A stretch of DNA of 64,000 nt from Endomicrobiales bacterium (GTDB lineage Bacteria > Elusimicrobiota > Endomicrobiia > Endomicrobiales > CAWCFT01). The position numbers and the translations under genes were made by a program. The stretch's first letter is position 1. Every line of letters begins with the position of its first letter. This document shows, piece by piece, positions 11,369 through 31,061 of the stretch. The notes beneath the pieces were generated by a model. The model had not been told where the DNA came from. It saw nothing but the letters and a program-made list of their open reading frames with translations, and did no database searches. Where the stretch lies: NCBI GenBank assembly GCA_963794945.1, contig CAWCFT010000001.1, positions 320,001 to 384,000 of the forward strand, given 5' to 3'.

Positions 11369-11476
11369 GATTACGGTGATTATCCGCCAATGGCGGACTT
11401 CGATTACAGTGATTGGAATCTTGATATCACCGTAATCTTCCATTCTTGTCGCTGTAATCAGTCCCGCCTTGGCGGG
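11369..11476. repeat. Empty GATTAC-arm hairpin element with two CCGCC-N-GGCGG palindromes
   Basis: gattacggtgatt (11369) and gattacagtgatt (11402) are inverted to atcaccgtaatc (11426) and gtcgctgtaatc (11448). Palindromes at 11383-11397 and 11463-11476. Confidence 0.8.
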
Positions 11477-11519: not shown

Positions 11520-11548
11520 TTGACATCAAAGTTCATCTGTGTTATAAT
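11520..11548 (+). promoter_or_regulatory. Consensus sigma70 promoter upstream of the KS cluster
   Basis: TTGACA-17 nt-TATAAT with extended -10 TG. Confidence 0.8.
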
Positions 11549-11757: not shown

Positions 11758-12976
11758 ATGCAAAAAAATCATATGTTGATCACCGGGATCGGTGTAGTAT
11801 CGCCCTGCGGCGCTAGGCAAAGATATTTTTTTTAACTGCCTTGAGTCCTCTAAAAACTTACTGGCAAAGCCCAAGAATATTTCGTATTCAGGAGCTGCAG
11901 GCGAAGTCAATGATAAAGCGGTTCTAAAGTATCTCGGCGAAAAAGGCGTGCGTAACCTTGACAGAAGCGCGCTGGTACTGCTGGCTGCTGTCGGTATGGC
12001 TATCAAAGAAGCAAAACTTGTGATAGACGCCTCGAATACCGACAGGATCGGTATAGCCACCGGTACAACGTTCTCTCACCTTCAGCCTATAGTAGATTTT
12101 GATAGAGAAGTATTCAAAGAAAGCATCAACTTCGCAAGCCCGGTATTGTTCCCTTCTACCGTTCTTAATGCCGCTTCCTCCCAGGCTTCCATCAGATACA
12201 ACATACAGGGTTTCAACACTACTATCAGCACGGGATTTACATCCAGCCTTGAAGCCGTAAAATACGCTATCAACAGCCTTGAAAACGGCCACGCGGACAT
12301 CGTATTTTCAGCGGGCCTTGAACCGCTTTCGCGGTCGTTATTGTTCGGCCTAAAGAAACTGAGATACATCGCGGGCATCAGCGGGCCGGATATTTCATGC
12401 CCGTTCGACGCGAGAAGGAACGGCCCTGTCCCGGCGGAGGGCGCTGGCGTGCTGTGTTTGGAAACTGAGAGCTCAGCCAAAAAAAGAAAGGTGAAACCTT
12501 ACGCGAAAATATTAAGCGTAGAGAGCTGTTTTGACCCGAGAGGAACAGCCAAGGTTTATCCTACAGGAGAAAGCATCGCCCAGGCCGTCATTAGCGCCAT
12601 AGGTGAAGCCGGGGTCAAGCCTGGAGACATTGATTACATCTCTTCCTGCGCGAATTCGACCCGGGACCTTGACCGCATAGAAGTTAAGGCCCTGAAAAAA
12701 GTGTTCGGCGCAAATGTAGGCAAAATACCCGTAAGCTCAATTAAATCCATGATAGGCGAGACCTTTTCCGCTTCCGGCGCCATGCAGATGATATCCTGCG
12801 TGGGCGCGATGGAACACGGCATCATCCCTCCCACGATCAATTACAAATTAAGCGATCCTCAATGCGATATAAACTGCGTACCAAACAAGCCCATTAAAAA
12901 GAAAGTGAACCTGGCGCTGGTAGTCTCTTCCGGGCCCGGCGGCTATAACAGCGCCTGCGTTATTGAAAAAGCATGA
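11758..12976 (+). CDS. Non-catalytic ketosynthase (chain-length-factor-like KS-beta); frameshift near 11805
   Basis: N-terminus MQKNHMLITGIGVVSP joins LGKDIFF...GVRNLDR after one indel. KS fold, but the catalytic positions read STGFTSS (Cys absent), SSCANST (His absent) and KSMIGET (His absent). Confidence 0.85.
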
Positions 12977-12980
12977 AAGC

Positions 12981-13067
12981 AATTGAAAATTGAAAAATTT
13001 AAGATTTAAAATTAGCGTCGTAAATATTTAATCTTAAATCTTTAATTTTAAATTCTCAATATTAAAT
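12981..13067. repeat. Intergenic heptamer hairpin, family B
   Basis: ttgaaaa-ttgaaaaa-tttaaga-tttaaaa ... atcttaa-atcttta-attttaa-attctca. Confidence 0.8.
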
Positions 13068-13081
13068 CAAAGGGTAATATC

Positions 13082-13816
13082 ATGAAAGAATTTAGAGGCA
13101 AAACGGTAATAATAACAGGCGGGTCGCGAGGCATTGGTAACGCGTGCGTTAAGGCGTTCTTCTCCGCGGGCGCGAACGTTGTTTTTACTTACAACAATAG
13201 CAAGGAAGAAGCCGGCAAACTTAAAAAACTAGGCAAAAGCGTTATAGCGGTAAAAGCTGATATCAAAGATTACGAACAATGCCGGTCAGTCGTGGGGGCT
13301 GCGCTGAAACATTTCAAGAAAGTAGACATTGTTATAAATAACGCAGGCAAAACTAACGACAAGGCTCTTGTTATGATGAAGAACGATGACTGGAAAGATG
13401 TCATAGACACAAACCTCGGCGGCACGTACAATATGACCAGGGCTATTATCACTACTTTCATGAAACAAAAAAGCGGCTGTATTATCAATATGAGTTCAGT
13501 AAGCGGTATAGTCGGGCTGCCGCGGCAGACCAATTACAGCGCATCTAAGGCCGGAATAATAGGTTTTACCAAAGCTTTGGCAAAGGAAGTCACCGCTTAC
13601 GGTATAAGGGTCAACGCGGTGTGCCCGGGCTATATAAGCACGGACATGATAAGCACGCTTAACGCCGAAATGATGAAGAACATAATAAATACCATACCGG
13701 TAAGGCGAATTGGCGAGCCGGAAGAGGTTGCTGAACTTTGCGTATATCTGGCATCGGATAAAGCAAAATATATAACCGGGGAATCGATAAAGATAGACGG
13801 CGGATTGGCTATATAG
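13082..13816 (+). CDS. fabG: 3-oxoacyl-ACP reductase (ketoreductase)
   Basis: TGGSRGIG, NNAG, YSASKAG (YxxxK), CPGYIST, IDGGL. Confidence 0.92.
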   Translation: MKEFRGKTVIITGGSRGIGNACVKAFFSAGANVVFTYNNSKEEAGKLKKLGKSVIAVKADIKDYEQCRSVVGAALKHFKKVDIVINNAGKTNDKALVMMKNDDWKDVIDTNLGGTYNMTRAIITTFMKQKSGCIINMSSVSGIVGLPRQTNYSASKAGIIGFTKALAKEVTAYGIRVNAVCPGYISTDMISTLNAEMMKNIINTIPVRRIGEPEEVAELCVYLASDKAKYITGESIKIDGGLAI

Positions 13817-13817
13817 T

Positions 13818-13936
13818 AAACCCCGTTAGAGACAACGGGCATTTCGCGAATATAAAGATGGCAGCATTTCACCGCCATCTAACAGCATGGATTTAAACTG
13901 CCAGCGGGAGTCGGCGGCAGTTTCAAACTGGGTAAA
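13818..13936. repeat. Multi-hairpin intergenic element
   Basis: Stems cccgtt/aacggg, agatggc/gccatct and aaactgcc/ggcagttt; imperfect termini accccgttaga / tcaaactgggt. Confidence 0.55.
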
Positions 13937-13996
13937 ATAATATAATATTAACACTGGCTTAACAAGCAACTGATAAAATAGTTTACCGGAGGAAGT

Positions 13997-15325
13997 ATGG
14001 CATGCTTGGCCGTTATCTGTTTTTCATTGATGTTGATGTTATCATCAGTTGTCTCCTGCTGGTCAAAAGGTATTTTTATCCAGCCGGGCGCGAGGGATGG
14101 CGCGATGGGCTCCGCGATGACGGCGGTAGCTGATGAAGCCACCGCGGTATATTATAACCCGGCAGGCCTTGCCCAGCAAACAGGTTCAGAGGTTGAAGCG
14201 TCGTTATTCAGCCTGTCGGCCAACGCGACGAGCAACAAGTCCCTGGCCAACGCAGCCGCTCCAAATGTTATTAACGGAGACTTCCCGCTGCCGAACCTAT
14301 CTGCCATCCCAGGCGCTCTTCCGCCGATGCTTGCTAACTCAGAACCTACGGAATATCAAAGCAAACAATTCTCAACAAACGCAGAGATTCCGTTCATAGG
14401 GGCATACAAGAACGTTAACGGTGTAACTTACGCGTTGAGCGTTTATGGAATAGGCGGTGGAGGAGGAACATGGAGTGATTCAGTGCCGGCTTTAGGCGGC
14501 GCTGCCAAAATAACCGCCAGCCTTGCCGGTACTTATGCTTTCATGGTATACAATATTTCAGCCGCAACAAAATTAACTTCAAAGCTGATGCTGGGGCTAG
14601 GCATAGATATTGTCAATATGATCAACGAAACAAACGCTCAAAAATACTTTGATACCGCCGCGGGAAATTCCATTTACGGCATGGCTGTAAACCAGAGCGC
14701 GACAGGCTACGGAGTTCAGGTAAACGGCGGTTTGCTTTATAAATTCAACGAACAATGGAAAGCCGGGCTTGTTCTGCGCAGCGGCACGGACATTAAATTA
14801 AACGGGCAGGCGAACGGCTACGACAGCGTCAGCGGCCAGACTGATTATACTGATGACTACACATACCCTTTAACCGGGTCTGTTGGCGTGTCCTATGAGC
14901 CTAAAAATAATTTAACTTTAGCTTTGTCGGTTGACCAAACCCAGTATTCAGAGATGCATGAAACGATCAATTATAACAAGCAAATGCCTGGTGTGTTTGA
15001 CAATAGCGCCGGGCCGCTTGAAGGCAGGGATTGGAAAGATTCCACACAGTTTCATGTTGGCGCGGAATACCGCTGTGCCGATAAACTGGCTTTGAGGGCA
15101 GGTATTGAGAACGACCCCGCTCCGTTCTCTACTGATCAGTTAACGCTTACTGAGATAAACCAATATAATTTCATTTACTATTCGATAGGCGCCGGATACA
15201 AGATCGGGCAAGTGAACGTTGATCTATGTTACGCGTATTGCCCTTCGGATTCGCCTTCTATTGGCGACAGAAGTTATCAGTATAATTTGAACGTATTCAG
15301 GCTTGGGGCGAGCTACAGGTTCTAA
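13997..15325 (+). CDS. FadL/OmpP1/TodX-family outer-membrane hydrophobic-compound channel
   Basis: Signal peptide, GARDGAMG...ADEATAVYYNPAGL hatch motif, alternating beta-strands, C-terminal YRF. Confidence 0.85.
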   Translation: MACLAVICFSLMLMLSSVVSCWSKGIFIQPGARDGAMGSAMTAVADEATAVYYNPAGLAQQTGSEVEASLFSLSANATSNKSLANAAAPNVINGDFPLPNLSAIPGALPPMLANSEPTEYQSKQFSTNAEIPFIGAYKNVNGVTYALSVYGIGGGGGTWSDSVPALGGAAKITASLAGTYAFMVYNISAATKLTSKLMLGLGIDIVNMINETNAQKYFDTAAGNSIYGMAVNQSATGYGVQVNGGLLYKFNEQWKAGLVLRSGTDIKLNGQANGYDSVSGQTDYTDDYTYPLTGSVGVSYEPKNNLTLALSVDQTQYSEMHETINYNKQMPGVFDNSAGPLEGRDWKDSTQFHVGAEYRCADKLALRAGIENDPAPFSTDQLTLTEINQYNFIYYSIGAGYKIGQVNVDLCYAYCPSDSPSIGDRSYQYNLNVFRLGASYRF

Positions 15326-15387
15326 AATCTGAATAGTTCATCTCATTTAGGCGGAATTTGCACGTTAATTAACAAAGGGGGTAAATC

Positions 15388-15645
15388 GTGGCGAAGAAGT
15401 TAGACGCGGCAAGTATGATCAAGGAAGCGAAAAAACTGATATCTGAGATATCGGAGATACCAGCGGCTGACCTCAAAGACGGAGCAAAATTCACGGAAGA
15501 TCTCGGTGTGGACAGTATGAAAGCACTGGAAATTGTGGCTGCCATAGAAAAGAAATTCAAGGTTACTATACCTGAGGAGAAGATACCTACTATACGCTCT
15601 CCAAAGGATGTTTATGACCTTGTACAAAAACTCTTGAAATTATAA
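15388..15645 (+). CDS. Acyl carrier protein
   Basis: EDLGVDSMKALE with the phosphopantetheine Ser; 85 aa; AAAGGGG RBS. Confidence 0.92.
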   Translation: MAKKLDAASMIKEAKKLISEISEIPAADLKDGAKFTEDLGVDSMKALEIVAAIEKKFKVTIPEEKIPTIRSPKDVYDLVQKLLKL

Positions 15646-15712
15646 CGTTATTCGATTAAAATATTCCTACGTTCAGCTTTATCCGGGTGGCTGTGGCAAA
15701 GAGGATAGTTTA

Positions 15713-16204
15713 ATGTCGGAAAACTGTGATAATATGGGCAGTGCCAATAAAGACGGCAATCAGGCTATTACGGGCCCGGTGTTTGACGTGCGGAAGATAC
15801 TGCCTCAGAAATACCCTTTCCTTTTCATAGATAAAGTTGTTCACGCCGATAAAGTAAAACAGCAGATCACCTGCCTTAAAAATATTTCAGGGAATGAAGG
15901 CTTTTTTCAGGGCCATTTCGCGGGAAACCCTATACTGCCCGGCGTAATAATAATAGAAGCTATGGCGCAGGCGAGCATACTTCTCTACGCGTGCGTAAAG
16001 CCCGCCAGCCTTGAGCGAAAGCCCGTATTTTTCCTTGGCAAAGTAGATGCCAGTTTCAAAAAACCCGTAATTCCCGGAGACATACTAATACTTCAGGCTA
16101 ACGCGGAAAAGATCATCGATACGGGCGGGATAGTGAAAGTAACCGCAAAAGTTGGTGAAAACACCGTAGCCGAAGCCACTTTACATTTTGGAGTAAAATT
16201 TTAA
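15713..16204 (+). CDS. 3-hydroxyacyl-ACP dehydratase (FabZ-like)
   Basis: PQKYPFLFIDKV, FFQGHFAGNPILPGVIIIEAMAQ, FKKPVIPGD. Confidence 0.9.
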   Translation: MSENCDNMGSANKDGNQAITGPVFDVRKILPQKYPFLFIDKVVHADKVKQQITCLKNISGNEGFFQGHFAGNPILPGVIIIEAMAQASILLYACVKPASLERKPVFFLGKVDASFKKPVIPGDILILQANAEKIIDTGGIVKVTAKVGENTVAEATLHFGVKF

Positions 16205-16208
16205 TATC

Positions 16209-17423
16209 ATGAAAAATACAAGGGTAGTGGTCACAGGGCTTGGGCTGGTAACATCGATAGGGATCGGCAAAGATGAATTCTGGAAGAATCTTACCGCGGG
16301 CATGTCTGGCATAAGTGAAGTCAAACAGTTCGATACCAAAAGGTTTAAACGCCATTTTGGCGGGGAGATACAACATTTTAACCCTGCCGAATACCTGCAT
16401 AGGAAGTCCGCAAACTACATAGGCAGGGCGTCACAGCTTGGGCTTACCGCGGCAAAACTGGCGTTAAAAGACGCCTCAATATCAGATAAAGCTATAAAGA
16501 ACCAGAAAACCGCGGTTATCGTAGGCGTTACTATACCTGAAAGCGGTTTGATCGACCAGTTTTCGGAGGAGATGTATTTTAAGAGGACAAAGAATATACA
16601 TAAAAGGTCCATACTGAATATCAACGCGCCTTCAATATCGAGGGATATCGGCCATTTCCTTGGCGCTAAACCGGTTAACATGCTTATCCCAAACGCCTGC
16701 GGAGCGGGTAATTTCTCCATAGCCTACGGTTACGACCTCATTAAGCAGGGCAAAGTGCAAACCGCCCTGGTTGGCGGGGCGGAGGCTTTTTCACGCGTGG
16801 CGTTCCAGGGGTTCCAAACCTTACGCGCGATGGCCGAGAATAAATGCTCTCCCTTTGACAAGAACAGGCAGGGAATGTTGTTGGGTGAAGGGGCAAGTAT
16901 ACTGATCCTGGAAGATTATGAATCTGCCATAGCCAGGAAAGCCCGTATTTATTGCGAGGTGCTTGGTTATGGTTACTCCTGCGACGCTCACAGCATGACT
17001 ATCCCTAAGAAGGAAGGCGTATTTAAGGCCATGAAAAAGGCCTTGGATAATTCCGGAATAAAGGCAGATGAGATCGATTATATAAGCGCTCATGGGACCG
17101 GCACCATCGCTAACGATAAAAATGAAACCGCCGCTATCAAGGATCTGTTCGGTGAAAGGTTCAGCAGAATGCCCATAAGTTCTATGAAATCGATGCTCGG
17201 CCACTCTATGGGCGCCGCTTCAGCCATAGAGGCAGCGTCATGCTGCCTGTCAATCGAAAAAAATGTTGCGCCTGCCACCATGAATTACACCACGCCTGAC
17301 CCGGATTGCGATATTGACTGCGTGCCTAATTTCGCCAGAAAAACAAAAGTTGATGCCGCCTTGAACAACGGTTTTGCCTTTGGCGGAAACAATTGCTGCG
17401 TGGTGTTCAAAAGGTGCGCTTAG
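16209..17423 (+). CDS. Active beta-ketoacyl-ACP synthase (FabF-like/KS-alpha)
   Basis: Cys-His-His triad intact: PNACGAG, SAHGTGT, KSMLGHSMGA; also NNGFAFGGNN. Confidence 0.92.
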   Translation: MKNTRVVVTGLGLVTSIGIGKDEFWKNLTAGMSGISEVKQFDTKRFKRHFGGEIQHFNPAEYLHRKSANYIGRASQLGLTAAKLALKDASISDKAIKNQKTAVIVGVTIPESGLIDQFSEEMYFKRTKNIHKRSILNINAPSISRDIGHFLGAKPVNMLIPNACGAGNFSIAYGYDLIKQGKVQTALVGGAEAFSRVAFQGFQTLRAMAENKCSPFDKNRQGMLLGEGASILILEDYESAIARKARIYCEVLGYGYSCDAHSMTIPKKEGVFKAMKKALDNSGIKADEIDYISAHGTGTIANDKNETAAIKDLFGERFSRMPISSMKSMLGHSMGAASAIEAASCCLSIEKNVAPATMNYTTPDPDCDIDCVPNFARKTKVDAALNNGFAFGGNNCCVVFKRCA

Positions 17424-17454
17424 TGGAAATGCCTGTAATTTAACACTTGATCAG

Positions 17455-17477
17455 AACCGCACACCGTGCGGTTTTTT
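17455..17477 (+). terminator. Rho-independent terminator after the KS operon
   Basis: AACCGCAC-acc-GTGCGGTT followed by a T-run. Confidence 0.75.
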
Positions 17478-17512
17478 GCTAAAATATTTGAAAATAGTGC
17501 TGAAACTCGATA

Positions 17513-17541
17513 TTGCCACGTTAACATATTGAATTTACAAT
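17513..17541 (+). promoter_or_regulatory. sigma70-type promoter for the ParB-like/oxidoreductase/kinase unit
   Basis: TTGCCA-17 nt-TACAAT. Confidence 0.6.
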
Positions 17542-17639
17542 ATAAACAGCGCGCATGGTGCCAGGTGCGGGGTGGTTGGTAAATGCCTTGAACCCGGCAC
17601 AAAGAACCTTGCACCAAGCAGGGCCATTGAGGAGGGACA

Positions 17640-18392
17640 ATGTTCAACTTGGAGAAGTATCCTGAGCAGTGGGTGGAGTTAAGCAGGATCGAAATTGAAG
17701 GCACGCAGTTCCAGTCAAGAGCAGCAAAGGACCAAAAAAAGATAAAGGCCCTGGCTGAGCAGATCAAGAAAGACAGCCTGCTGGAAGCTGCTATCCTTTA
17801 CGAATTCAACGACCGGTCAAGGCTAATGGCTATAATCAGCGGGCACAACAGGCTGCCGGCGCTGCAATTGCTCGGCTGGGACAAGGTGCGCTGCCGTGTG
17901 ATACCTGAATCGGAAATGGACCAGAAAACAGCGTTCCGGTTAAGCATAAAGGAAAACCTCAGCAACGATTCGCTTAAGAACAAAGACATAATATTTTCAG
18001 CAAAGAGAATGCGAGATGACGGAGCAACACAGGCGGAGATAGCGGAGTGTCTAGGCATAGCTGAGTCAACAGTAAGGAAATACCTTGCCGCGGCTGATTC
18101 GCCTAATGCCAAACAGGTAGCCGCAGGCGAGGAGTCAATAAATCACGCGCTTGACAATAAAAAAATGTATTTCAGGCCTCTCGGCGGCAAGGGTTTTAAC
18201 TACGCCATCAAGTTCAAGTCAAAAAGCGATGACCCGCAGGAACTGAAACATTTTCTTGATAAGACGGTTCCGGAACTTTATAAAATTGCAGGGGCCCTGC
18301 TTGACGCAAGAACGGTGCCTGCCTCTGTGCCTTCGACAGGCAAGCCCGACTCAGATAGAGGGGCGGAAAACGCCCCGGCGCCTGAACAATAA
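17640..18392 (+). CDS. Orphan ParB/Srx-domain protein with HTH
   Basis: FQSR, IKALAEQIKKDSLL, IISGHNRL (GxxR), SIKENL; HTH GATQAEIAECLGIAESTVRKYL; GAGGAGG RBS. Confidence 0.8.
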   Translation: MFNLEKYPEQWVELSRIEIEGTQFQSRAAKDQKKIKALAEQIKKDSLLEAAILYEFNDRSRLMAIISGHNRLPALQLLGWDKVRCRVIPESEMDQKTAFRLSIKENLSNDSLKNKDIIFSAKRMRDDGATQAEIAECLGIAESTVRKYLAAADSPNAKQVAAGEESINHALDNKKMYFRPLGGKGFNYAIKFKSKSDDPQELKHFLDKTVPELYKIAGALLDARTVPASVPSTGKPDSDRGAENAPAPEQ

Positions 18393-18437
18393 TGAACTCA
18401 ATTGCGTTTCAAGGTTCTTATATAGAGGTTTTCTAAT

Positions 18438-19865
18438 ATGTCTGAAAAATATGATGCGATCATTATAGGTTCTGGGATAGGAGGATTGGTATGCGGCTGT
18501 TATTTGGCTAAAGCCGGGCAGAAAGTCTTAATAGTTGAACAACATGATAAACCGGGCGGGTATTGCGGTTCTTTTAAAAGAAATGGCACCGTGTATGACA
18601 CCGGAGTGCACTATTTAGGCGGCATACGCAAAGGTATCTTAGGGACAATATTAAAAGAACTTGATATACTTGACCGCATGAAACTTCGTCAATTCGATAC
18701 GGCGGAGAAAATAGTTCTTCCAAATGTCACTTTCTATATAAAATCAAATATGGATGAGACGATACAAGGGCTTAAAACACTTTTTCCTAAAGAAAGTATC
18801 AATATCGATAGATTTTTTGAGCATATTCTCCAGCAGAGTTTTTACAGCATTTATAAAAATGCCGCAAATAGAAGTTTTAAAAACGTTTTAAGACATTTTT
18901 TTACAAATGAAGACCTGCTGTCAATATTTGACGCTATCTGTTTAATGAATAAAGGATTAAATGCTTCCCAGGTGTCAGCGATATCGACTATAATATTATT
19001 GCGGGATTATATTTCAAACCCGGGTTATTACCCGGTCGGCGGAATGTGCCAATTCCCGAATTTATTGGTCCAAAGATTTAAGGAATACGGCGGGACTATG
19101 ATATATTCTGAAAAAGTATCTAAGATAATTATCTCAAAAGAAATTAAAGTGAAAGGCGTTGAGGCCGCAAGTAATAAGTATTTATCCGATACGGTCATAT
19201 CTAACTGCGACGCTAAATACACTTTTCAGGAGTTAATTGATGTAAAAATCAAAGAAAAAAATAAAATTGATTCTTTAGTGCCTTCTGCTTCATTTTTTAC
19301 AGTATACTTACAAATAACAAAAGATAATTACTATAAATCACTAACGAAAGATTCTCATGCAATATCATACTTCTTCACTCAAAAACCATCGTATAATACA
19401 AAATATGAAATTGCTGATGGGCAAGAAATCAGGTATCTGAATTATGCTATCCCTGCTGAATACGACAATACTAGTAAAATGGGAATTAGAGTTATTACTT
19501 TAGCCAAGTATTACACACCTAAATTTTGGGATAGATATAAAGCTGCTTACGCACAAACGATTCTAAATAAGACAAAACAACTATTCCCGAAAATAGTCGA
19601 TAACGTAACAAATAAATTTATTGCTACACCTGTAACTTTTAATAAGTTTACACGTAACGATTGCGGTGCCGGGTTTGGATGGGCGCCTACGGTGAAGCAG
19701 GAAAGCACATCATTATGCCCTTCGAAGACCAGTATTAAAGGTCTTTATCTAAGCGGGCACTGGTCAACTACTGCGATAGCCAAAAGCGGGGCGCCTGTTG
19801 TTGCATTTTGCGGGATGAACACAGCAAAATCGGTTTTAGAACAGAAATTATCATTGAGAAATTAA
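18438..19865 (+). CDS. FAD-dependent oxidoreductase, phytoene desaturase/retinol saturase (COG1233) family
   Basis: YDAIIIGSGIGGL...VEQHDKPGGYCGSF, YDTGVHYL, YPVGG, ATPVTF, IKGLYLSGHW. Confidence 0.88.
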   Translation: MSEKYDAIIIGSGIGGLVCGCYLAKAGQKVLIVEQHDKPGGYCGSFKRNGTVYDTGVHYLGGIRKGILGTILKELDILDRMKLRQFDTAEKIVLPNVTFYIKSNMDETIQGLKTLFPKESINIDRFFEHILQQSFYSIYKNAANRSFKNVLRHFFTNEDLLSIFDAICLMNKGLNASQVSAISTIILLRDYISNPGYYPVGGMCQFPNLLVQRFKEYGGTMIYSEKVSKIIISKEIKVKGVEAASNKYLSDTVISNCDAKYTFQELIDVKIKEKNKIDSLVPSASFFTVYLQITKDNYYKSLTKDSHAISYFFTQKPSYNTKYEIADGQEIRYLNYAIPAEYDNTSKMGIRVITLAKYYTPKFWDRYKAAYAQTILNKTKQLFPKIVDNVTNKFIATPVTFNKFTRNDCGAGFGWAPTVKQESTSLCPSKTSIKGLYLSGHWSTTAIAKSGAPVVAFCGMNTAKSVLEQKLSLRN

Positions 19866-19925
19866 TCGTGAATTTAAAAAAGGCTTTAAGCGGCAGAAAC
19901 AAGAGTGGACGGAGAAATAAGATAT

Positions 19926-21011
19926 ATGAGTAAAAAAACTGTCTTCTTAACCGGGCCTACGGGTTTTGTAGGGTCATATCTTTTAAAGATATTTATCGAG
20001 AATGGATACAAAGTATATGCGCTCGCAAGAGATAAAAACGAACGGTCAGGCAAAGAAAGAGCGATAAATGCCGTAAGATTTTGGGATAAAAATACTGCAA
20101 AAAGAACAGGCGGCAATCTTGTTGTGCTTAATGGCGATATAATAAAGAATAACCTGGGCCTTTCAAATAATAATGTAAAGCAGTTGGTTGATGAAGTGGA
20201 AGAAATATATCATTGTGCGGCCAATACGGGTTTTAATCTGCCTATCAAAACTGCAAGGCTTGTAAATGTTAAAGGAACAGAAAATGTTTTGAAACTGGGG
20301 TACGCGTGCAGCAATAAAGGGAAATTGCAGAAGATCAATTATATAAGCACAATATACGTATGTGGCGACCATAAAGGTGTATTTGATGAAAATTGCCTTA
20401 ATGTAGGACAGCAGTTCAATACTACGTACGAAAAAAGTAAATATGAAGCTGAACTGCTTGTAGAGAAGTATAGGAAAATGGGGTTATGGATAAATGTATT
20501 CAGGCCGCCGATCATTATAGGTGAGTCAAAAACCGGGAAAGTGCCGGCATTTAATCAAGCCTTGTATCAAACATTGCATATTTGGGATTCAGAACTGCTT
20601 AAATATTTTCCGAATGATAATAAACTTCGTGCAAATATGGTTTGTGTTGATGAGCTCTGTGAAAGTATATTTAAGATCGCCGGCAATGTGTCTTTGAAGG
20701 ATAAAAATTACCATACTTTTCACATGAAAGGGGTCACTCCTGTTGAGCTTTTGAATATTTCACAAAAAATACTAAAATTCAAGAAACCTATAATAGTTAG
20801 TGAAATCGAGTTCGTGAAAAGATCTACCTCCGTGCAGAAGATGCTTTTAAAATACAATATATTATTTATTAATTCCAAGGTAAAACTGCGGTCTTTTAAA
20901 ACAAATGATGTTCTAAATAAACTTAATTTCAAATACTCGGTTATAGGCGAAAAATTATTGAATAGAATCGTATTATATTCAAAACGTGAGAAGTTCGGAA
21001 ATAATAATTAA
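19926..21011 (+). CDS. Extended SDR, thioester-reductase/fatty acyl reductase (NAD_binding_4) type
   Basis: VFLTGPTGFVG, HCAANT, VNVKGT, YIST, YEKSKYEAE, RPPIIIG. Confidence 0.85.
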   Translation: MSKKTVFLTGPTGFVGSYLLKIFIENGYKVYALARDKNERSGKERAINAVRFWDKNTAKRTGGNLVVLNGDIIKNNLGLSNNNVKQLVDEVEEIYHCAANTGFNLPIKTARLVNVKGTENVLKLGYACSNKGKLQKINYISTIYVCGDHKGVFDENCLNVGQQFNTTYEKSKYEAELLVEKYRKMGLWINVFRPPIIIGESKTGKVPAFNQALYQTLHIWDSELLKYFPNDNKLRANMVCVDELCESIFKIAGNVSLKDKNYHTFHMKGVTPVELLNISQKILKFKKPIIVSEIEFVKRSTSVQKMLLKYNILFINSKVKLRSFKTNDVLNKLNFKYSVIGEKLLNRIVLYSKREKFGNNN

Positions 21012-21026
21012 ACAGCCGGTCAAAAC

Positions 21027-23195
21027 ATGAATATGACTAAATTATATCCTATACCCACTTTTATTGTTTCTGCCATGCTGTTGTTTTTGGGCATATTTGT
21101 CTATAGGAACAGCAAACAACAGTATATCAATAAAGTGTTCATGGGATTGTGCTTTACTAGTAGTTGTTGGCTGCTATTCTTTTCAATTACATATACTGTT
21201 AGAAATGAATATATCGCGTTTATGCTAGAAAAAATCGGATATTGCGGTATCACGTTTATACCAATAACTGTATTTCATTATATAATTGAATTTTTAAATA
21301 TCAAGAGAATTAAAAGGTTTGCGCTTTATAACTATATTGTTGGTTTAATATTTGTCGTATTGATATGGACAACGCCATTTATTGTAGGAGGTGTAAAAAA
21401 CTATTTTTGGGGCTATTATCCTGTGGCGGGAATTTTGCATCCGCTGTTCCTTGCGTATTTTATTTTTATTGGTGTTATATTATCATCTTTGTTTTTATTG
21501 TTCAAATATTATTATAGACAAAAGCAGCTTACATATTTAAAGAAAGAGCAGATCAAATATGTGATCTTGGCTTTTTTTATATATTATTTTGCCGCGGCAG
21601 ACTTTTTTCCAAACTATGGGATTTCAATTTATCCATTTGGATACTTGCCAACATTATTCTTTATCATCATTATCAGTTATACTATTGTCAGATTCAGGTT
21701 AATGGATGTAAATGTCGCTATTACCCGCGCTGGAATATTTCTAGTGCTTTATTCATTGGTCCTTGGCATCCCTTTTTTAATAGGGCACTATACAGAATCC
21801 TGGATATTATCAACGATATTCGCTGTTATTCTTGCATCAATAGGCCCTCTGGTATACCGTTCGATACAGCGGAAAGCTGAAGACCTGCTGCTCGCCGAGC
21901 AGAGGCGCTACCAGAAAATATTAGTGCAAGCCGCTAGCGGAATGGCCGGCGAGCATAATCTTGAACGGCTGCTTAAATTGATCGTGAGGGTTGTGAAAAA
22001 AGCCGTTAAAATGGAATACACCGCTATATTCCTTGAAGATAGAGAGAAAGAAGCATATATATTGAGGGCCATTCGCACCGATACTAATATACCGATAGAT
22101 ATATCGTTTGGGTTCAAAGACCCTCTTATAGAGTTCATGAAGAAACACAAGGAACCATTCCTTTTTGAAGAGATACCTGAATTTATCAAAGGGACGCTAA
22201 ACTTTCCTCTGAATATTTCACTAATAGTACCTTCATTTTTTGATGAAAGCTCAATAGGCTTTTTAGTATTGGGAGAAAAAAATAATAAGAAGGCTTACTC
22301 GACTGATGATATCAACGTTTTTAAGATATTATCCAGACGAACATCGATGTCTATAGAGAACTGTATTTTCGTTGAGGAATTCAAGAAAGCTCAGGAAAGG
22401 GTGTTCGCGGCGGAGAAACTTGCTTCTATCGGCGGCCTCGCGGAAGGAGTGGCCCACCAGATCAACAACCGGTTAAACCACTTCTCTATGGTTTCGGGAG
22501 AACTTAAATATGAAGTTGACAGCTATTTGTCGGCCCATGCAGAAGCGATAGTTCAAAATCCGGACCTGAAGAAGACGTTTGATTATTTTATCAAGATATC
22601 AAACTCACTGCTGTCGAACGTTAAGAGAACGGACGGCATCTTGAAGGGGATACTTAACTTTGCCAGAGTAGAAGCCAAAGAAACCTTGTTCTCGAACTTT
22701 TTCCTGCAGGAAGTTGTCGATCTGGCGATCGACCTACTCAGGGTCAAACATAGCGTACAGGAATTTCCAATCAAGGTGAACAAATTGTCATCCGATGTAA
22801 TATATGGGGTTAAGTCACAGATCATGGAATCCGTATATAATCTTATCGACAACGCTTACGAGGCAACACTTGATAAAGCAAACACGCTTAACCCAGGTGA
22901 TGCCGCGTTGTATAAACCCAACATAGAAATATCTATTTCTCAAAATCCTGAAAAGACGGTTATTCAATTCACCGACAACGGCATCGGCATAAAAAGCACC
23001 GACAGGCACAAAATATTCGCTCCTTTTTTTACTACTAAATCATCTTCAAAATCCGGCACAGGTATCGGCATGTATGTGGTCAGAAGGATGATAGAAGAGA
23101 ATCACAAAGGCAAGATATGGTTCGAATCCGAGTACGGCAAAGGCACAAAAATAACTATCGAACTGCCTAAGAAGTATACTTCTGGCAGTAACTAG
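21027..23195 (+). CDS. Membrane sensor histidine kinase (multi-TM HisKA_7TM-like + GAF + HisKA + HATPase)
   Basis: About 7-9 hydrophobic helices in the first 280 aa, GAF-like middle region, GVAHQINN H-box, NLIDNA, DNGIGI, PFFTTK, GTGIGM. Confidence 0.92.
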   Translation: MNMTKLYPIPTFIVSAMLLFLGIFVYRNSKQQYINKVFMGLCFTSSCWLLFFSITYTVRNEYIAFMLEKIGYCGITFIPITVFHYIIEFLNIKRIKRFALYNYIVGLIFVVLIWTTPFIVGGVKNYFWGYYPVAGILHPLFLAYFIFIGVILSSLFLLFKYYYRQKQLTYLKKEQIKYVILAFFIYYFAAADFFPNYGISIYPFGYLPTLFFIIIISYTIVRFRLMDVNVAITRAGIFLVLYSLVLGIPFLIGHYTESWILSTIFAVILASIGPLVYRSIQRKAEDLLLAEQRRYQKILVQAASGMAGEHNLERLLKLIVRVVKKAVKMEYTAIFLEDREKEAYILRAIRTDTNIPIDISFGFKDPLIEFMKKHKEPFLFEEIPEFIKGTLNFPLNISLIVPSFFDESSIGFLVLGEKNNKKAYSTDDINVFKILSRRTSMSIENCIFVEEFKKAQERVFAAEKLASIGGLAEGVAHQINNRLNHFSMVSGELKYEVDSYLSAHAEAIVQNPDLKKTFDYFIKISNSLLSNVKRTDGILKGILNFARVEAKETLFSNFFLQEVVDLAIDLLRVKHSVQEFPIKVNKLSSDVIYGVKSQIMESVYNLIDNAYEATLDKANTLNPGDAALYKPNIEISISQNPEKTVIQFTDNGIGIKSTDRHKIFAPFFTTKSSSKSGTGIGMYVVRRMIEENHKGKIWFESEYGKGTKITIELPKKYTSGSN

Positions 23196-23204
23196 GGGTT
23201 GGCC

Positions 23205-23582
23205 ATGGCTGAGAACAAGCATATACTGTTAGTCGACGACGAAGAAGAGATAGTCGTCTTTATGGCTAACTTTTTAAAGCGTTTCAAGATCGCGAGCACC
23301 AAGGCTACTTCAGGCGAAGAAGCAATTAGAGTTTACGATCCAAAGAGTATGGGGTTTGTTTTTCTTGACCTTCACCTTAAAACAATGGATGGTTTTTCTG
23401 TGCTGAACATATTAAAAGAAAAGAATCCGGATGTTAAAGTTATAATTATAGCGGGCAGTCCCGACAAGGTGTCGATAGAAAAAGCATACGGCCTTGGCGC
23501 GGTAGATTACATTACAAAACCGCTAGACTTAAGCGAGTTTAAAAAGAAAATAGATAAATACATCCTCAAAGAGGGTGAATGA
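23205..23582 (+). CDS. Stand-alone CheY-like response regulator
   Basis: ILLVDDE, FLDL (phospho-Asp), DGF, GAVDYITKP; no output domain. Confidence 0.92.
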   Translation: MAENKHILLVDDEEEIVVFMANFLKRFKIASTKATSGEEAIRVYDPKSMGFVFLDLHLKTMDGFSVLNILKEKNPDVKVIIIAGSPDKVSIEKAYGLGAVDYITKPLDLSEFKKKIDKYILKEGE

Positions 23583-24139
23583 TTACGGAGATTAAACATA
23601 AACAAATTGATTACAACGATTTTAATCATAATTAAGGTATAATCCAGATCATTGTAATAGTGCAGTAGTAACAAATAATCGTTTTAATCTCGTATCTACA
23701 GGATATAAACGATGTTAAAAGAAAAAGATAGCTTGACCGAACAAATTATAGGGAGTTGTTTTAAGGTACACAAAAAACTGGGGCCCGGCTATAATGAAAA
23801 GATATACCAAAATGCATTGAAATTGCAATTAGAGTGTGATGGTTTGATCTGTGAGTGCGAAAAAGAATATAAAGTTAATTATCTTGATAAATTTGTAGGT
23901 ACTTTGAGAATTGATCTCATTATTGAGAAGAGAGTGATTGTAGAAATCAAGGCAATCTCGACTTTTGTTCCTAAAGTATTTGAGAATCAGGTGATTTCTT
24001 ATTTGAAATCGTCGCAACTTGATGTTGGATTGTTGGTAAATTTTGGAAATAACAGTTGTCAAATCAGACGTCTAATGAAATCGCATAATTCGCATTGTAA
24101 ATCGTTGTAATCGTTGTTAGTAATCGCTGTAATCAATTT
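23581..24139. mobile_element. GxxExxY cassette bounded by GATTAC-type inverted repeats
   Basis: GATTACAACGATTT (23609-23622) is the exact reverse complement of 24099-24112. 23604-23621 versus 24122-24139 match 17/18. Mobility is inferred. Confidence 0.6.
23712..24110 (+). CDS. GxxExxY family protein (PD-(D/E)XK nuclease-like)
   Basis: VHKKLGPGYNEKIYQNAL, RIDLIIEKRVIVEIKA, QVISYLK, GLLVNFG; 132 aa. Confidence 0.93.
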   Translation: MLKEKDSLTEQIIGSCFKVHKKLGPGYNEKIYQNALKLQLECDGLICECEKEYKVNYLDKFVGTLRIDLIIEKRVIVEIKAISTFVPKVFENQVISYLKSSQLDVGLLVNFGNNSCQIRRLMKSHNSHCKSL

Positions 24140-24156
24140 ATCCATAGGATAATTAA

Positions 24157-25437
24157 ATGAAAAAATACTACCATAAAGACCTTGAAAAAGCAGCACGGCA
24201 GATGATACTTGTTCGCAAGGTAGATACCCTTGCTAAACTTATCGTGCGCACTATAATCAGGAATATACATGTAAGGCACGCGGGGATCTTTCTTTTTGAC
24301 AAAACAAAAAATGAATACATAGTCAAAGTGTCGAAAGGAAAATTAGGCATAAAGATCCCAGTAGGTTTTACTAAAGTAAAGAGCGATAATGCAATAATCA
24401 GGTTCTTTACGGATAAGACCGTAGGAAAATACTTCAAACAAGACTTCCTTCTGTACAATAAAATTAATTACCGCTTCAAATGTAAAACACATTCGGAAGA
24501 TAAAAATCTTCAAGATTTCCTTAAGAAATTGAAAAGCGAGTTCTCTTTATACCAGGCTAAAGCTTTTATCCCGGGATTTTATACGAACAATCTGGTTGGC
24601 GTGTTATTCCTTGGCGCAAAGGATGATAACAGCAGTTTTAAGGCTGATGAACTTGGATTTTTGTTTGTTCTTGCTTCGGATGTGGTAATGGCTATTCAGA
24701 ACGCCTGGCTTTTCGAAGACCTCAACAGCCAGCTCGATATCAACAAGAAATTATTTTTAAGCACTGTTACGGCACTGGCAACAGCTATAGAAGCAAAGGA
24801 TAAGTATACGCTAGGGCACACCGAGCGGGTAGTAAAATATTCAACTGCCATAGCCAGGAACTTGCCAGGGATAACCATACCCAACAACAAGGATTTTGAG
24901 GAAAATCTTAAGATCGCGGCTTTATTGCATGACATAGGAAAGATAGGTATATCAGAAAACTTGCTCAACAAGAGCGATGCCTTGTCACCGAAAGAAATAA
25001 AGGCCATTAATGAGCATCCTTTGATGGGTGTGGAGATACTTAACCCTATCAGCGAGTTCAAGGATGTTCTGCTGGGTGTAAAATATCATCACGAGAGATA
25101 TGACGGCAAAGGCTATCCTTTCGGGCTTAAAGGCGATCAGATACCTTTAGCCGCGGCAATTATTGCCGTAGCCGACGCTTACGACGCCATGACAAGCGAC
25201 AGGCCGTACAGAAAAGCATTAAGTGACGCTGAAGCGTGCAATCAGATACTGCTCAACCGCGAGAAGCAGTTTAACCCCGTTGTAGTTGATGCGTTCTTAA
25301 AGGTTTATAAGAATAAGGATGTAATTGAGGATAGTATCGGCAGTGCCGAAACAGTATCTGCGAAGACTAAAGAAAAAAATGCCTCCAATAGTTCCGAACT
25401 GAACCCGGTACAGGACCTCTCCGTTAGAGCCAATTAA
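24157..25437 (+). CDS. GAF + HD-GYP cyclic-di-nucleotide phosphodiesterase
   Basis: AKDKYTLGHTERV, ALLHDIGKIG, HHERYDGKGYPFGL, ADAYDAMTSDRPYR. Confidence 0.93.
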   Translation: MKKYYHKDLEKAARQMILVRKVDTLAKLIVRTIIRNIHVRHAGIFLFDKTKNEYIVKVSKGKLGIKIPVGFTKVKSDNAIIRFFTDKTVGKYFKQDFLLYNKINYRFKCKTHSEDKNLQDFLKKLKSEFSLYQAKAFIPGFYTNNLVGVLFLGAKDDNSSFKADELGFLFVLASDVVMAIQNAWLFEDLNSQLDINKKLFLSTVTALATAIEAKDKYTLGHTERVVKYSTAIARNLPGITIPNNKDFEENLKIAALLHDIGKIGISENLLNKSDALSPKEIKAINEHPLMGVEILNPISEFKDVLLGVKYHHERYDGKGYPFGLKGDQIPLAAAIIAVADAYDAMTSDRPYRKALSDAEACNQILLNREKQFNPVVVDAFLKVYKNKDVIEDSIGSAETVSAKTKEKNASNSSELNPVQDLSVRAN

Positions 25438-27200: not shown

Positions 27201-27785
27201 ATGGAAAATAACAACCTTACAAAAGGCGCCAGAGTCGCCGGGACTATTGTTTACGGCGTAGTGCAGGTAATAATACAAACATATGGCCTGGAAGGCTATA
27301 TTAATGTGCTCAAGAGAATGACGCCTGAACACAAGAGCTTGCTGGAGTCAACCCACAGCGCGAGCCGCAGTTTTACGAGCGAATTTACGCGTGACTATTT
27401 GGATGCAATAACAAGGGCTCTGCCGTCAAAAAGTTCACAGTCTGTTATCACCGAAATTGTGCGCGAGCTGGCGCACAACCATCTTAGCACAGTGATGACA
27501 ATATTTTTGAAATTAGGAACGCCTCATTTCATACTTCAGCGTTTTCCGAACATCTGGAGATTGTTTTTCACTCACGGAACTATGGTCGTCGAAAATGAAT
27601 TTGAGAAGTCCGCTGACGTTATGCTTTTGGACAATATTGACTATGGAGAAGGCGTTTGCATGGGATCCTTAGGCTGGATGCAGGGGGCTATGGAAAAATC
27701 CGGCGCAAAAGATGTAATTGTCATACATCCGAAATGTATATTCCGCGGGGACACTAAGTGTATATTCAAGTTTGCATGGAGTTAG
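27201..27785 (+). CDS. Hypothetical protein with V4R/H-NOX-like C-terminus (DUF2378-like)
   Basis: C-terminal C...GWMQGAME...HPKCIFRGDTKCIFKFAW resembles V4R motifs. Confidence 0.55.
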   Translation: MENNNLTKGARVAGTIVYGVVQVIIQTYGLEGYINVLKRMTPEHKSLLESTHSASRSFTSEFTRDYLDAITRALPSKSSQSVITEIVRELAHNHLSTVMTIFLKLGTPHFILQRFPNIWRLFFTHGTMVVENEFEKSADVMLLDNIDYGEGVCMGSLGWMQGAMEKSGAKDVIVIHPKCIFRGDTKCIFKFAWS

Positions 27786-28426: not shown

Positions 28427-31061
28427 ATGATAAAAAAATTTATCAATTCAATTTTTGGTTCTCAGAACGAGAGGACCATGAAACAACTTCAGCCAACGAT
28501 TGACGCTATAAACGCTCTTGAGCCTGAAATGGTTAAACTCACGGACGATGAGCTGAAAGCTAAAACGGTTGAGTTCAGAAAAAGGCTTGCTGAAGGTGAA
28601 AAGCTGGATGATTTAATCGCGGAAGCTTTTGCCTGCGTGAGAGAGGCTTCGAAGAGGACCATCGGCCTAAGGCATTTTGATGTTCAGATGCTGGGCGGAT
28701 GTGTTCTGCACCAGGGAAAGATAGCTGAAATGAAAACGGGTGAAGGTAAAACACTCGTGGCCACGCTGCCCGTATACCTCAACGCCCTGGAAGGCAAAGG
28801 CGTCCATCTTGTCACGGTAAACGACTACCTTGCAAAACGCGATATGACATGGATGGGGCCGGTCTATAATTTCCTCGGGCTTACTGTAGGTTACGTGGCC
28901 CATGACATGCCTAACAGCGAGCGCCAGAAATCATATGCCTGCGATGTCACATACGTCACCAATAACGAGATAGGGTTCGATTACCTGCGCGACAACATGA
29001 TAATCGCCAAAGAAGACCGAGTCCTTGGAGAGCTGAATTTTGCCATAGTTGACGAAGTGGACTCGATACTTATAGACGAAGCCCGCACTCCGCTCATTAT
29101 ATCCGGCCCCGCGGAAGAATCTACCGACAAATATTATATATGCAACCGCATAATTCCGCACATGAAGGGCAGGAAGATCACCGAGGCAGAAGAGATAAAT
29201 GCCAAATACACCGGAGAGGACCTTACAAAAGGGTTCGATTACATTGTTGACGAAAAAAACCATACTGTTGTTCTTTCCGAACCGGGCGTAACCAAGGCGG
29301 AACAATTGCTCGGCGTAAAGAATATCTACGATGACATGCAGGCTGAGTGGGTGCACCACCTCACGCAGGCTCTGCGCGCCCATAACCTCTATTCAAGAGA
29401 TGTTGATTATGTTGTAAAGGAAGGCCAGGTAATAATAGTTGACGAGTTCACGGGCCGGCTCATGCCGGGCCGCAGGTGGTCAGAAGGGCTTCACCAGGCG
29501 ATAGAAGCGAAAGAAGGCTTAAGGATAGCAGAAGAGAACCAGAACGCTTGCAACTATAACGTTCCAGAACTTTTTCAGGATGTACAAAAAACTCGGCGGT
29601 ATGACAGGCACGGCGCTGACCGAAGCCGCGGAGTTTTGGGAGATATACAAGCTCGACACTGTCGAGATACCCACTAACCGCTCGATGGTCAGGATCGACA
29701 GCCCCGACATGATCTACAGGACCGAACGCGAAAAGAATGATGCTATTGTTAAAGAGATAGAAGAGCTGTGGAAGAAAGGCCAGCCGGTGCTTGTTGGAAC
29801 AAAATCAATAGAGAAATCCGAGAAAATATCGGCGCATCTTAGAAGGAAAGGCGTTCCGCACCAGGTATTGAACGCGAAATACCATGAAATGGAAGCGCAG
29901 ATAATAGCTCAAGCGGGAAAGAAGGGTTCGGTAACGATAGCCACGAACATGGCCGGCCGCGGAACGGACATCGTGCTAGGCGGTAACCCGGCTACTCCTG
30001 AAGAAGCAGCTTTCGTAAAAAGCATAGGCGGCCTTCACATACTCGGCACCGAAAGGAACGAGGCTCGCCGCATAGATAACCAGATCCGCGGCCGTTCAGG
30101 CAGGCAAGGCGACCCCGGTTCGTCCCGTTTTTATCTTTCACTGGAAGACGAGCTGATGAGGCTTTTCGGTTCGGAGCGTATTTCAGTGCTCATGGAAAAA
30201 CTGGGCATGAAAGAAGGTGAGGAAATTCAACACCCCTGGATATCCAAGGCGATAGAGAATGCACAGCGCAAAGTGGAAGGAATGAACTTCGACATAAGAA
30301 AACAGCTCCTTGACTATGATAACGTGATGAACAAACAGCGCGAGGCTGTTTACAGGCTGCGCAACGAGATACTCGAAGGTGAAGATATTTCAGTTACGAT
30401 AAAAGACATGCTCGAAGAATCCATAGAAGAAAAAGTCAACCAATGGGCACCGCCTAAAGCCTACCCGGAACAATGGGATTTTGTTAGCCTAAACGCGTGG
30501 CTTCTCAGGGTATTCAACTTTAAAGTTGAATACACTCAGGAAGAAATGATGAACTTAAGACAGGAAAACCTCCGCGCACAGATAGGCGAAAAAGTTGACG
30601 AGGCGTATAAAAAGAGGGAAAGCGAGATGACGACCCCGCTAATCCGCCACGTCGAACGCATGATACTCCTTCAGATGATAGATACGGCATGGAAAGAACA
30701 CCTTTACGACCTCGACCAGATAAAAAAAGGTATCGGCCTAAGGGCTTATGGACAGAAAGACCCAAAGATAGAGTATCAGAAAGAATCATTCTCGATGTTT
30801 GAGAACATGATGCACCGCATCAGGGAAGCGACTCTTGATTACCTGTTCAAGATACAGATAGCCCCTCCGCCTGTGCGTCGAGAACGCGTTGCGGTTAATG
30901 AGCCAACCAATAAAGAACCGGCATCATTGGCAGCCCCAAAACCTGAAAATCATAAACACAAAGAACTAGACGATATCAAACCGCTGTACAAGCTGGGCCG
31001 AAACGACCCATGTCCGTGCGGCAGCGGTAAAAAATACAAGAAGTGCTGCGGAGCGAAATAA
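28427..31061 (+). CDS. secA: Preprotein translocase ATPase SecA (frameshift near 29543)
   Basis: [70 protein letters not shown]. Confidence 0.97.

Follow-up and report, generated by a model that had tools for sequence, protein, structure and literature searches.

A type II ketosynthase locus coupled to a seven-transmembrane receptor in an Endomicrobiales bacterium: a candidate lipid signalling cassette whose finishing enzyme and sensor are replaced together

We analyzed a 64,000-nt stretch of the Endomicrobiales bacterium assembly GCA_963794945.1 (contig CAWCFT010000001.1, positions 320,001 to 384,000 of the forward strand), hereafter the window; coordinates are positions in it, and G and L labels denote compared genomes and loci. 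At 11758-25437 it carries 13 open reading frames (ORFs), every one on the + strand, encoding a ketosynthase module, a seven-transmembrane (7TM) receptor and proteins linked to cyclic di-GMP (c-di-GMP). Comparison with related loci showed that the finishing enzyme or enzymes and the 7TM part of the receptor are replaced jointly while the kinase half stays, which yields dialects. We consider it probable that the locus is a synthase-receptor cassette for cell-to-cell signalling, in which a self-made fatty aldehyde or alcohol is sensed by the cognate receptor, with c-di-GMP as the output. The core of the original prediction, which had been made from these letters, may thereby be kept: a tailored acyl product, an adjoining receptor and c-di-GMP are consistent with our finding that the sensor tracks the enzyme better than the kinase does, and several details have been corrected.

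The gene order claimed earlier for a single strand was confirmed by the ORF listing and domain scans of the window, which gave the following layout.

11520-11548, +: sigma70-type promoter-like site (12/12, extended -10) ahead of the ketosynthase unit; consensus match only
11758-12976, +: non-catalytic ketosynthase resembling a chain-length factor (CLF); best PDB match 9s5h_C; frame broken near 11812
13082-13816, +: FabG-type ketoreductase (KR), from domain scans
13997-15325, +: FadL/OmpP1-type outer-membrane channel (PF03349, E 2e-27)
15388-15645, +: dedicated acyl carrier protein (ACP) with a DSM motif, from domain scan and motif
15713-16204, +: FabZ-type dehydratase (DH), from domain scans
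16209-17423, +: active ketosynthase (KS), C164/H295/H332; best PDB match 9s5h_B (E 7e-119), next 6kxd (E 6e-98)
17453-17480, +: terminator-like 10-bp hairpin (17453-17475, z -3.0) with a U run
17513-17541, +: promoter-like site after the hairpin, 10/12 consensus match
17640-18392, +: ParB-HTH protein, a passenger
18438-19865, +: FAD oxidoreductase of the CrtI/CrtISO (phytoene dehydrogenase-like) family; start of a cassette with low GC at third codon positions (GC3)
19905-21011, +: stand-alone thioester reductase (TR), NAD_binding_4, with TGxTGFxG and YxxxK intact
21027-21710, +: 7TM sensor domain of the receptor, residues 1-228; predicted fold like that of G-protein-coupled receptors (GPCRs); swapped along with the reductase
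21711-23195, +: receptor linker helices, GAF, dimerization/phosphotransfer domain (H477-Q-I-N-N) and HATPase; the conserved part, 64-65% identical to the G011 orthologue
23199-23582, +: single-domain receiver (REC); D13, D57 and K107 invariant in 20 aligned homologues
23604-24139, +: passenger insertion, a GxxExxY gene (23712-24110) between 18-nt inverted repeats
24157-25437, +: GAF-HD-GYP c-di-GMP phosphodiesterase, 65% identical to the G011 orthologue

The receptor gene (21027-23195) encodes a HisKA_7TM-GAF-HATPase protein and begins 15 bp after the reductase ends, the gap that had been stated. This receptor is a mosaic: its 7TM sensor clusters with receptors that adjoin thioester reductases, its kinase half with the syntenic locus of G011. 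Compared with its orthologue in G011, a genome of another family, the kinase is 65% and the sensor 23% identical, and the enzyme upstream is unrelated; compared with L085, which holds the closest reductase (52%), the sensor is 50% and the kinase 25% identical. Identity switches within the receptor at about residue 200-240. Base composition follows the same division, the FAD oxidoreductase, TR and sensor having a GC3 of 0.33-0.34 and the kinase one of 0.52 (p 4e-5; p 0.014 at fourfold sites). The window groups with G011 on the kinase tree and with L085 and L091 on the sensor tree. Approximately unbiased tests on a 24-row subset, for groups picked after the identities had been seen, rejected window plus G011 on the sensor tree (p 2e-5) and window plus L085 plus L091 on the kinase tree (p 0.005).

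The same pattern was found across the receptor family. In L002, two tandem receptors are 98% identical in the kinase and 23% in the sensor, each standing behind its own, different enzyme. Among 59 receptors belonging to enzyme classes of at least 3 members, the nearest neighbour judged by sensor shared the enzyme class in 43 cases, that judged by GAF in 31 and that judged by kinase in 21, against 9 on shuffling. Mapping enzyme class onto the trees required 17 changes for the sensor, 25 for the GAF and 26 for the kinase, versus 38 when shuffled; these class statistics exclude 4 of the 92 'kinase' rows, which were 7TM-GAF-HD-GYP fusions. Where kinases were at least 60% identical, the median sensor identity was 44% for pairs with close enzymes (38 pairs) and 26% for pairs with unrelated ones (130 pairs), these pairs not being mutually independent. 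Sensor similarity predicts the enzyme even where kinases are less than 40% alike. The forward prediction, that a sensor like that of the window should lie behind a TR, held in a metagenome search made with the sensor only: a TR lay directly upstream in 5 of 6 matches at 45% identity or above (3 of 4 once two duplicate training loci are set aside) and in 1 of 66 lower matches with an upstream gene. A metagenome scan with the reductase as query gave no matches.

Next, we considered the linkage from the side of the ketosynthase. A first KS scan returned 80 loci, the best mostly from Omnitrophota metagenome-assembled genomes; a 7TM protein was present in 19 of the 80, many of the others being short or distant. 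A less biased count came from a KS search of 121 sampled Omnitrophota-phylum genomes (the phylum of G001), which gave 24 matches in 23 genomes. At E<=1e-118, 16 of 19 matches had a 7TM protein within 10 kb (G001, chosen as a known positive, being counted among the 16), 2 had none and 1 was cut by a contig end; among the weaker matches the figure was 0 of 5. The KS-receptor pairing is beyond chance. In a 66-row KS clade, a receptor was linked to 34 rows, some of which had been retrieved by way of the receptor; another 8 rows had none, and 24 were of insufficient length to judge; 6 of the 8 receptor-less loci form one subclade with a different gene set. Within the window's own order, the KS was present in 3 of 40 relatives. 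G011 has the same locus between uvrC and slt/lplA/secA, in the order CLF, KR, ACP, DH, FadL, KS, methyltransferase-like gene, receptor, REC and HD-GYP, the methyltransferase-like gene occupying the place of the window's ParB-FAD-TR. The order KS-TR-receptor recurs in L002, L167 and L168, and ACP-TR-receptor and ACP-KS-receptor triplets occur among the compared loci. A FadL gene also belongs to the G011 locus, at 52% identity, and lies next to receptors in L092, L094, L121 and L134.

A receptor-less KS/CLF subclade (L022, L024, L034, L038, L041, L042, L046, L049 and L053) carries an alpha/beta hydrolase, a FAD enzyme of a distinct kind and, in many cases, a FemAB-like gene, and is a candidate for making a different lipid product.

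Viewed from the receptor, the association is wider than the KS module. The 7TM-GAF region was matched in 96 of 121 Omnitrophota-phylum genomes, and the sensor profile in 45 of 151 genomes of the window's phylum. We took 60 regions around high-ranking 7TM-GAF matches; G001 was left out, as were some matches that were partial or lay at contig ends. In 49 of the 60, an enzyme that modifies acyl groups or small molecules lay directly upstream, with gaps of -56 to +49 nt; such counts are lower bounds, because the ORF calling missed some genes overlapped by longer antisense ORFs and marked some aldehyde dehydrogenases as 'REC'. With each locus left out, the enzyme library matched 49 of 59 genes at position -1, 26 of 56 at -2 and 2 of 56 at +1, the -1 figure being favoured by a library partly built from upstream genes; in the window's genome as a whole it matched 43 of 2181 genes. 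A KS or CLF was found in only 15 of the 60 regions, and this module is optional across the receptor family. The claimed coupling of KS/CLF to the receptor is borne out for the close KS homologues, and does not extend to the receptors at large. The core of the original prediction withstands the refutation set for it, that homologous clusters would generally lack the kinase and HD-GYP genes: the receptor is kept in those 16 of 19 loci. An HD-GYP gene follows far fewer receptors, as given below.

The partner enzymes elsewhere are largely of release or capping types. They include thioester reductases, acyl-ACP-reductase/PigE-like proteins, S-adenosylmethionine (SAM) methyltransferases, LuxD-type plus methyltransferase fusions, thioesterases, oxoamine synthases (L121, L137, L271, L273 and L274), an aminotransferase, an amidotransferase, formyl- and acetyltransferases, B12 radical SAM proteins (L094, L110 and L126; absent from the window locus), GMC oxidases, aldehyde dehydrogenases and a crotonase. 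Two closer assignments were unsupported: the L121 enzyme is nearer serine palmitoyltransferase than CqsA, and the L146 enzyme nearer ordinary crotonases than RpfF. PilZ or REC domains are present on some of these partners, which feedback would require. PilZ-like domains occurred in 20 of 501 upstream genes, several of them near-duplicates, with Pfam confirming PilZ in 7 of 21 scanned; none was found in the window enzymes.

The ketosynthases are of the kind found in highly reducing type II synthases: one KS has Cys-His-His (C164/H295/H332), its paralogue has F/C/E at these places, in agreement with the dead and active pair first described, and ACP, KR and DH are clustered with them. This KS/CLF-KR-DH-ACP architecture is common to the window, ishigamide Iga11/Iga12 and aryl polyene systems, as had been proposed; the closest relatives, on the other hand, are the anammox pair and not aryl polyene enzymes. 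Relative to highly reducing type II polyketide synthases in general, the window has reductive release and a receptor, and has no starter ligase, condensation domain, glycosyltransferase or MMPL exporter. Aryl polyene clusters feature an aromatic starter ligase, glycosyl/acyltransferases and an MMPL exporter. We rejected an aryl polyene identity, these features being absent among the 19 proteins scanned at 8181-28302, where no acyltransferase or glycosyltransferase was found.

The closest solved KS and CLF are PDB 9S5H chains B and C, with 6KXD second for the KS. From residue numbers that fit bioRxiv 10.64898/2026.05.19.726425, 9S5H may be the B. fulgida amxFabF2 heterodimer. As far as the accessible part of that preprint goes, the tunnels of the anammox heterodimer fit C12 and C16 chains, and the heterodimer reacted best with a C8 probe, its product being unknown there. 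The anammox 'Cluster I' described in the same accessible part (amxACP, amxFabZ, amxFabF2/amxFabFmut and a phytoene dehydrogenase homologue) has the same five protein types as the window and, unlike the window locus, a B12 radical SAM protein; the window adds KR, FadL, TR and the signalling module. In the anammox locus that we compared (ACP, DH, KS, CLF, flavoenzyme and radical SAM), the five protein types common to both are 33-49% identical to those of the window (45/33/37/49/33%), the FAD oxidoreductase standing at 33%. No receptor was found within the 20 kb fetched, and the anammox KS falls just outside the receptor-linked KS clade in the tree. The window reductase is similar to R domains of the MxaA type. 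We predict that the product is an aldehyde or alcohol with an unsaturated chain of medium to long length, the acyl chain being probably unsaturated because no enoyl reductase is encoded in the locus.

We also modelled the receptor. Residues 1-290 gave a pLDDT of 94, and all 50 listed structure matches were GPCRs or designed GPCR-like folds, the best with Z 16.3 and a root-mean-square deviation of 4.3 over 219 residues, although helical bundles score high by default and a common fold shows no function. Foldseek ranked GPCRs first, none at E<=0.001, and the sole match in a sequence search of the sensor against the PDB was a GAF domain. GPCR-like 7TM folds in histidine kinases have already been noted, according to the accessible part of PMC13581589. 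The receptor shows whole-length 7TM-GAF-kinase similarity to PrsK (TIGR02916; E 1.5e-21), with 76.7 bits against a cut-off of 300. Its H-box, H477-Q-I-N-N, lacks the acidic residue at H+1 and keeps the Asn, and the ATP boxes are intact; of 92 aligned rows, 38 have HQ. In the HisKA motif H-E/D-x-x-T/N, the acidic H+1 is needed for kinase activity and the Thr/Asn for phosphatase activity, as stated in the accessible part of PMC3510030; with Gln at H+1 and the Asn kept, it is therefore possible that the receptor is phosphatase-biased.

On the output side, 13 of 270 sensors are fused straight to HD-GYP; a 14th motif match was the solo kinase of the window's genome and was dropped. The GAF domains of the receptor and of the HD-GYP protein are homologous (24%), and a direct GAF-GAF contact between the two proteins is a matter of speculation. 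The receptor GAF is similar to PmGH (PDB 4MCW). The HD-GYP protein had been set beside RpfG; unlike RpfG, it has a GAF domain and no receiver.

Several further receptors were observed. The window's genome holds a second 7TM-GAF kinase (L090, G000 C16:35478-37593), enzyme-less, frameshifted and located behind nucleoside salvage genes; none of the other collected sensors is more than 28% like its own, and it is possibly a solo or eavesdropping receptor. L117, L003, L098, L127 and L141 contain arrays of two to four 540-aa 7TM kinases without GAF beside cassettes, their sensors all different. In family f10, none of 19 small genomes in genus g10 (about 1.0-1.4 Mb for those with a listed size) gave a sensor match, versus 22 of 25 other genomes of the family; the carriers often have an aldehyde dehydrogenase-family gene directly upstream, and G032 is a single-contig genome with the pair. 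In an anammox genome, a methyltransferase-7TM receptor pair (L277, G282:C37) lies apart from the ladderane cluster.

Our model is as follows. The KS/CLF, with its own ACP, KR and DH, would build a medium-to-long, probably unsaturated acyl chain. Judging from family chemistry, the CrtI-like flavoenzyme would adjust its double bonds and the TR would release it as a fatty aldehyde or alcohol. The molecule would cross the outer membrane, perhaps helped by FadL, and would bind the predicted GPCR-fold 7TM domain of the adjoining receptor, a pairing shown by the co-inheritance. The receptor, possibly acting chiefly as a phosphatase, would then alter how far the single receiver is phosphorylated, and the receiver might in turn control the linked GAF-HD-GYP enzyme and hence c-di-GMP. 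Cells could in this way sense their own density.

Several observations weigh against this signalling model. The core of KS, CLF, ACP, DH and FAD oxidoreductase matches an anammox cluster proposed for membrane lipids, and the 8 receptor-less KS clade members have enough flank to be judged. The genomes are related, so the counts overstate independence. A close enzyme is common to only 3 of the 19 usable sister pairs of the kinase tree, and because 2 of these 3 keep divergent sensors (30% and 36%), the independent-pair test does not establish specificity. A few sensors at 49-56% identity adjoin unrelated enzymes, and physical linkage in itself is enough for an enzyme to be inherited together with the 5' end of the following gene. 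REC follows 39 and HD-GYP only 23 of 71 receptors with enough flank (tblastn), and the receptor kinase has the Gln at H+1. A terminator-like hairpin stands between the KS and the reductase; a general terminator scan of the window did not have the hairpin at 17453 among its listed sites. The terminator and new promoter of the original prediction are backed by the hairpin and the 10/12 site, and not by that scan; together the two sites suggest two transcription units. Finally, the CLF frame that opens at ATG 11758 is interrupted in this assembly by a single additional base near 11812. This frameshift is likely an assembly error, because 6 of 49 ORF matches between relatives and this assembly are frameshifted, secA included; one DNA sequencing run held 8% of the words, and its contigs do not span 11812. 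The assembly is indel-rich, with secA split by a frameshift (28427-31061) and several adjoining genes affected as well.

Among the alternatives, the best-surviving one, which we regard as unlikely, is that the cell makes a lipid for structure, storage or defence, such as a fatty alcohol that goes into ether lipids, as with the related anammox cluster, and that the receptor gauges how much of it lies in the cell's own membrane, for homeostasis and not for communication. The solved anammox pair, the receptor-less anammox order ACP-DH-KS-CLF-FAD and the gathering of six receptor-less KS loci, with their hydrolase, distinct FAD enzyme and often FemAB-like gene, into one subclade all speak for it, and the PilZ-fused enzymes show that c-di-GMP can control synthesis. 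However, the scanned locus proteins include no acyltransferase or glycosyltransferase, and this explanation does not account for the constant replacement of enzyme and sensor between close kinases, the FadL channel or the extra enzyme-less 7TM receptor arrays, such as the four in L117.

It is improbable, in our judgement, that the receptor's cue comes from outside, for example as lipids of a host, prey or neighbour, with the enzyme converting or clearing that cue or hitchhiking and the KS module being a separately regulated response. The terminator and promoter-like site, which part the KS unit from the FAD-TR-receptor unit, would fit this explanation, as would the solo receptor without an enzyme in the window's genome, the aldehyde dehydrogenase, GMC oxidase and crotonase partners, and FadL, an importer in known cases. 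In contrast, TR, ketosynthases, oxoamine synthases and LuxD-type enzymes act biosynthetically on acyl-ACP or acyl-CoA, the ACP-TR-receptor and ACP-KS-receptor triplets point the same way, and an outside cue does not explain why the sensor predicts the enzyme among distant kinases.

We give little credence to the remaining possibility, that the family signals as proposed and that here the KS/CLF half has decayed or become uncoupled after the swap, the reductase using housekeeping acyl-ACP: the CLF frameshift, the ParB and GxxExxY insertions, the frameshifted second receptor and the mere ACP that accompanies the closest reductase and sensor in L085 agree with it, but frameshifts are common in this assembly, the CLF is about as identical to its intact G011 orthologue (56-59%) as the KS is (60%), and the KS-TR-receptor order recurs elsewhere.

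We then compared the signalling cassette that we favour with known systems. In Xanthomonas Rpf (RpfF/RpfC/RpfG), Vibrio CqsA/CqsS, Legionella Lqs and Ralstonia PhcB/PhcS, the synthase of an acyl-derived signal is encoded beside a membrane-embedded sensor kinase. The Xanthomonas diffusible signal factor (DSF) system, Rpf, has an HD-GYP output in common with the window. We rejected a DSF identity: the locus contains no RpfF, nor a LuxI, as the original prediction had said, the kinase has no match to a REC or histidine phosphotransfer domain, and the HD-GYP protein has GAF and not REC. CqsA/CqsS or Lqs identity was rejected for want of a pyridoxal-phosphate-dependent oxoamine synthase in the window locus. 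The methyltransferase synthase of Phc is not in the window locus either; at that place G011 has its methyltransferase-like gene. Unlike this group, in which the receptor is a hybrid kinase, the window has a HisKA_7TM-GAF receptor, whose family pairs with more than 10 enzyme types.

A likeness to staphylococcal agr and Bacillus comQXP lies in the variable block, which in the window spans the enzyme genes and the receptor's N-terminal sensor, the kinase being conserved. In agr and com, the variable block ends inside the kinase gene. Variable blocks give rise to specificity groups in agr (PMC10482373) and comQXP (PMC4408185), according to the accessible parts of these papers. The differences are a predicted lipid signal instead of a peptide and the exchange of whole enzyme families. 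As in pherotypes, synthase and sensor are variable and co-inherited and the kinase is conserved, with a weak independent-pair test. The locus works like Rpf, Cqs/Lqs and Phc and diversifies like agr/comQXP, yet it belongs to none of them. Ladderane-like clusters have been described in Omnitrophota and not linked to signalling (10.1101/2022.12.20.521206, accessible part). No description of the enzyme-receptor pairing was found in a literature search whose coverage left subscription journals mostly outside (accessible parts of PMC13641062 and PMC5847659 included), and no ligand for HisKA_7TM (PF16927) was found reported in the accessible parts of papers naming the domain.

The two passengers and some neighbouring sequences complete the description. 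ParB-HTH had been counted as part of the system; we rejected it as a regulator, as it has no match in the homologous loci of the other genomes compared and is one of about nine scattered paralogues, with about 8 others elsewhere in the genome. This family is lineage-specific, with variable low-complexity tails (17640-18392 and G000 C2, C6, C15, C16, C17 and C19). The GxxExxY gene, between REC and HD-GYP, has no counterpart in the G011 locus. Such operons repeatedly contain GxxExxY or four-helix-bundle (23S IVP-like) genes (L001, L079, L156, L007, L050 and L168), and a GATTAC/GTAATC-rich sequence at 11370-11460 is related to the inverted repeats around the window's GxxExxY gene. An AT-rich, 27-nt imperfect inverted repeat lies between CLF and KR (12987-13049), and a 194-aa ORF at 27201-27785 has no Pfam or NCBIfam match.

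For the wider family, we see about even chances that Omnitrophota and Elusimicrobiota have an undescribed family of lipid pheromones, in which more than 10 finishing chemistries, each with its matching sensor, plug into a bacterial GPCR-fold receptor of a self-made acyl molecule, with c-di-GMP feedback on the synthase. On that reading the dialects would comprise aldehyde/alcohol, methyl ester, amide, amine, aminoketone and free acid, and the window, at the same even chances, would represent the aldehyde/alcohol one; many 'ladderane-like' clusters outside anammox bacteria would then be signal synthases. For the clusters of this kind in non-anammox bacteria, the locus offers a function. Its KS/CLF and flavoenzyme are simpler relatives of the anammox ones and come with a release enzyme, so that their product is directly testable by heterologous expression, and the natural enzyme-sensor swaps are ready cognate and non-cognate pairs for assays and lipid biosensors. 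If our model is true, HisKA_7TM receptors, with their GPCR-matching fold, would gain their first ligand class, and two phyla that are largely uncultured would gain a communication system. The joint swap of finishing enzyme and sensor would then be the pattern of a private chemical language.

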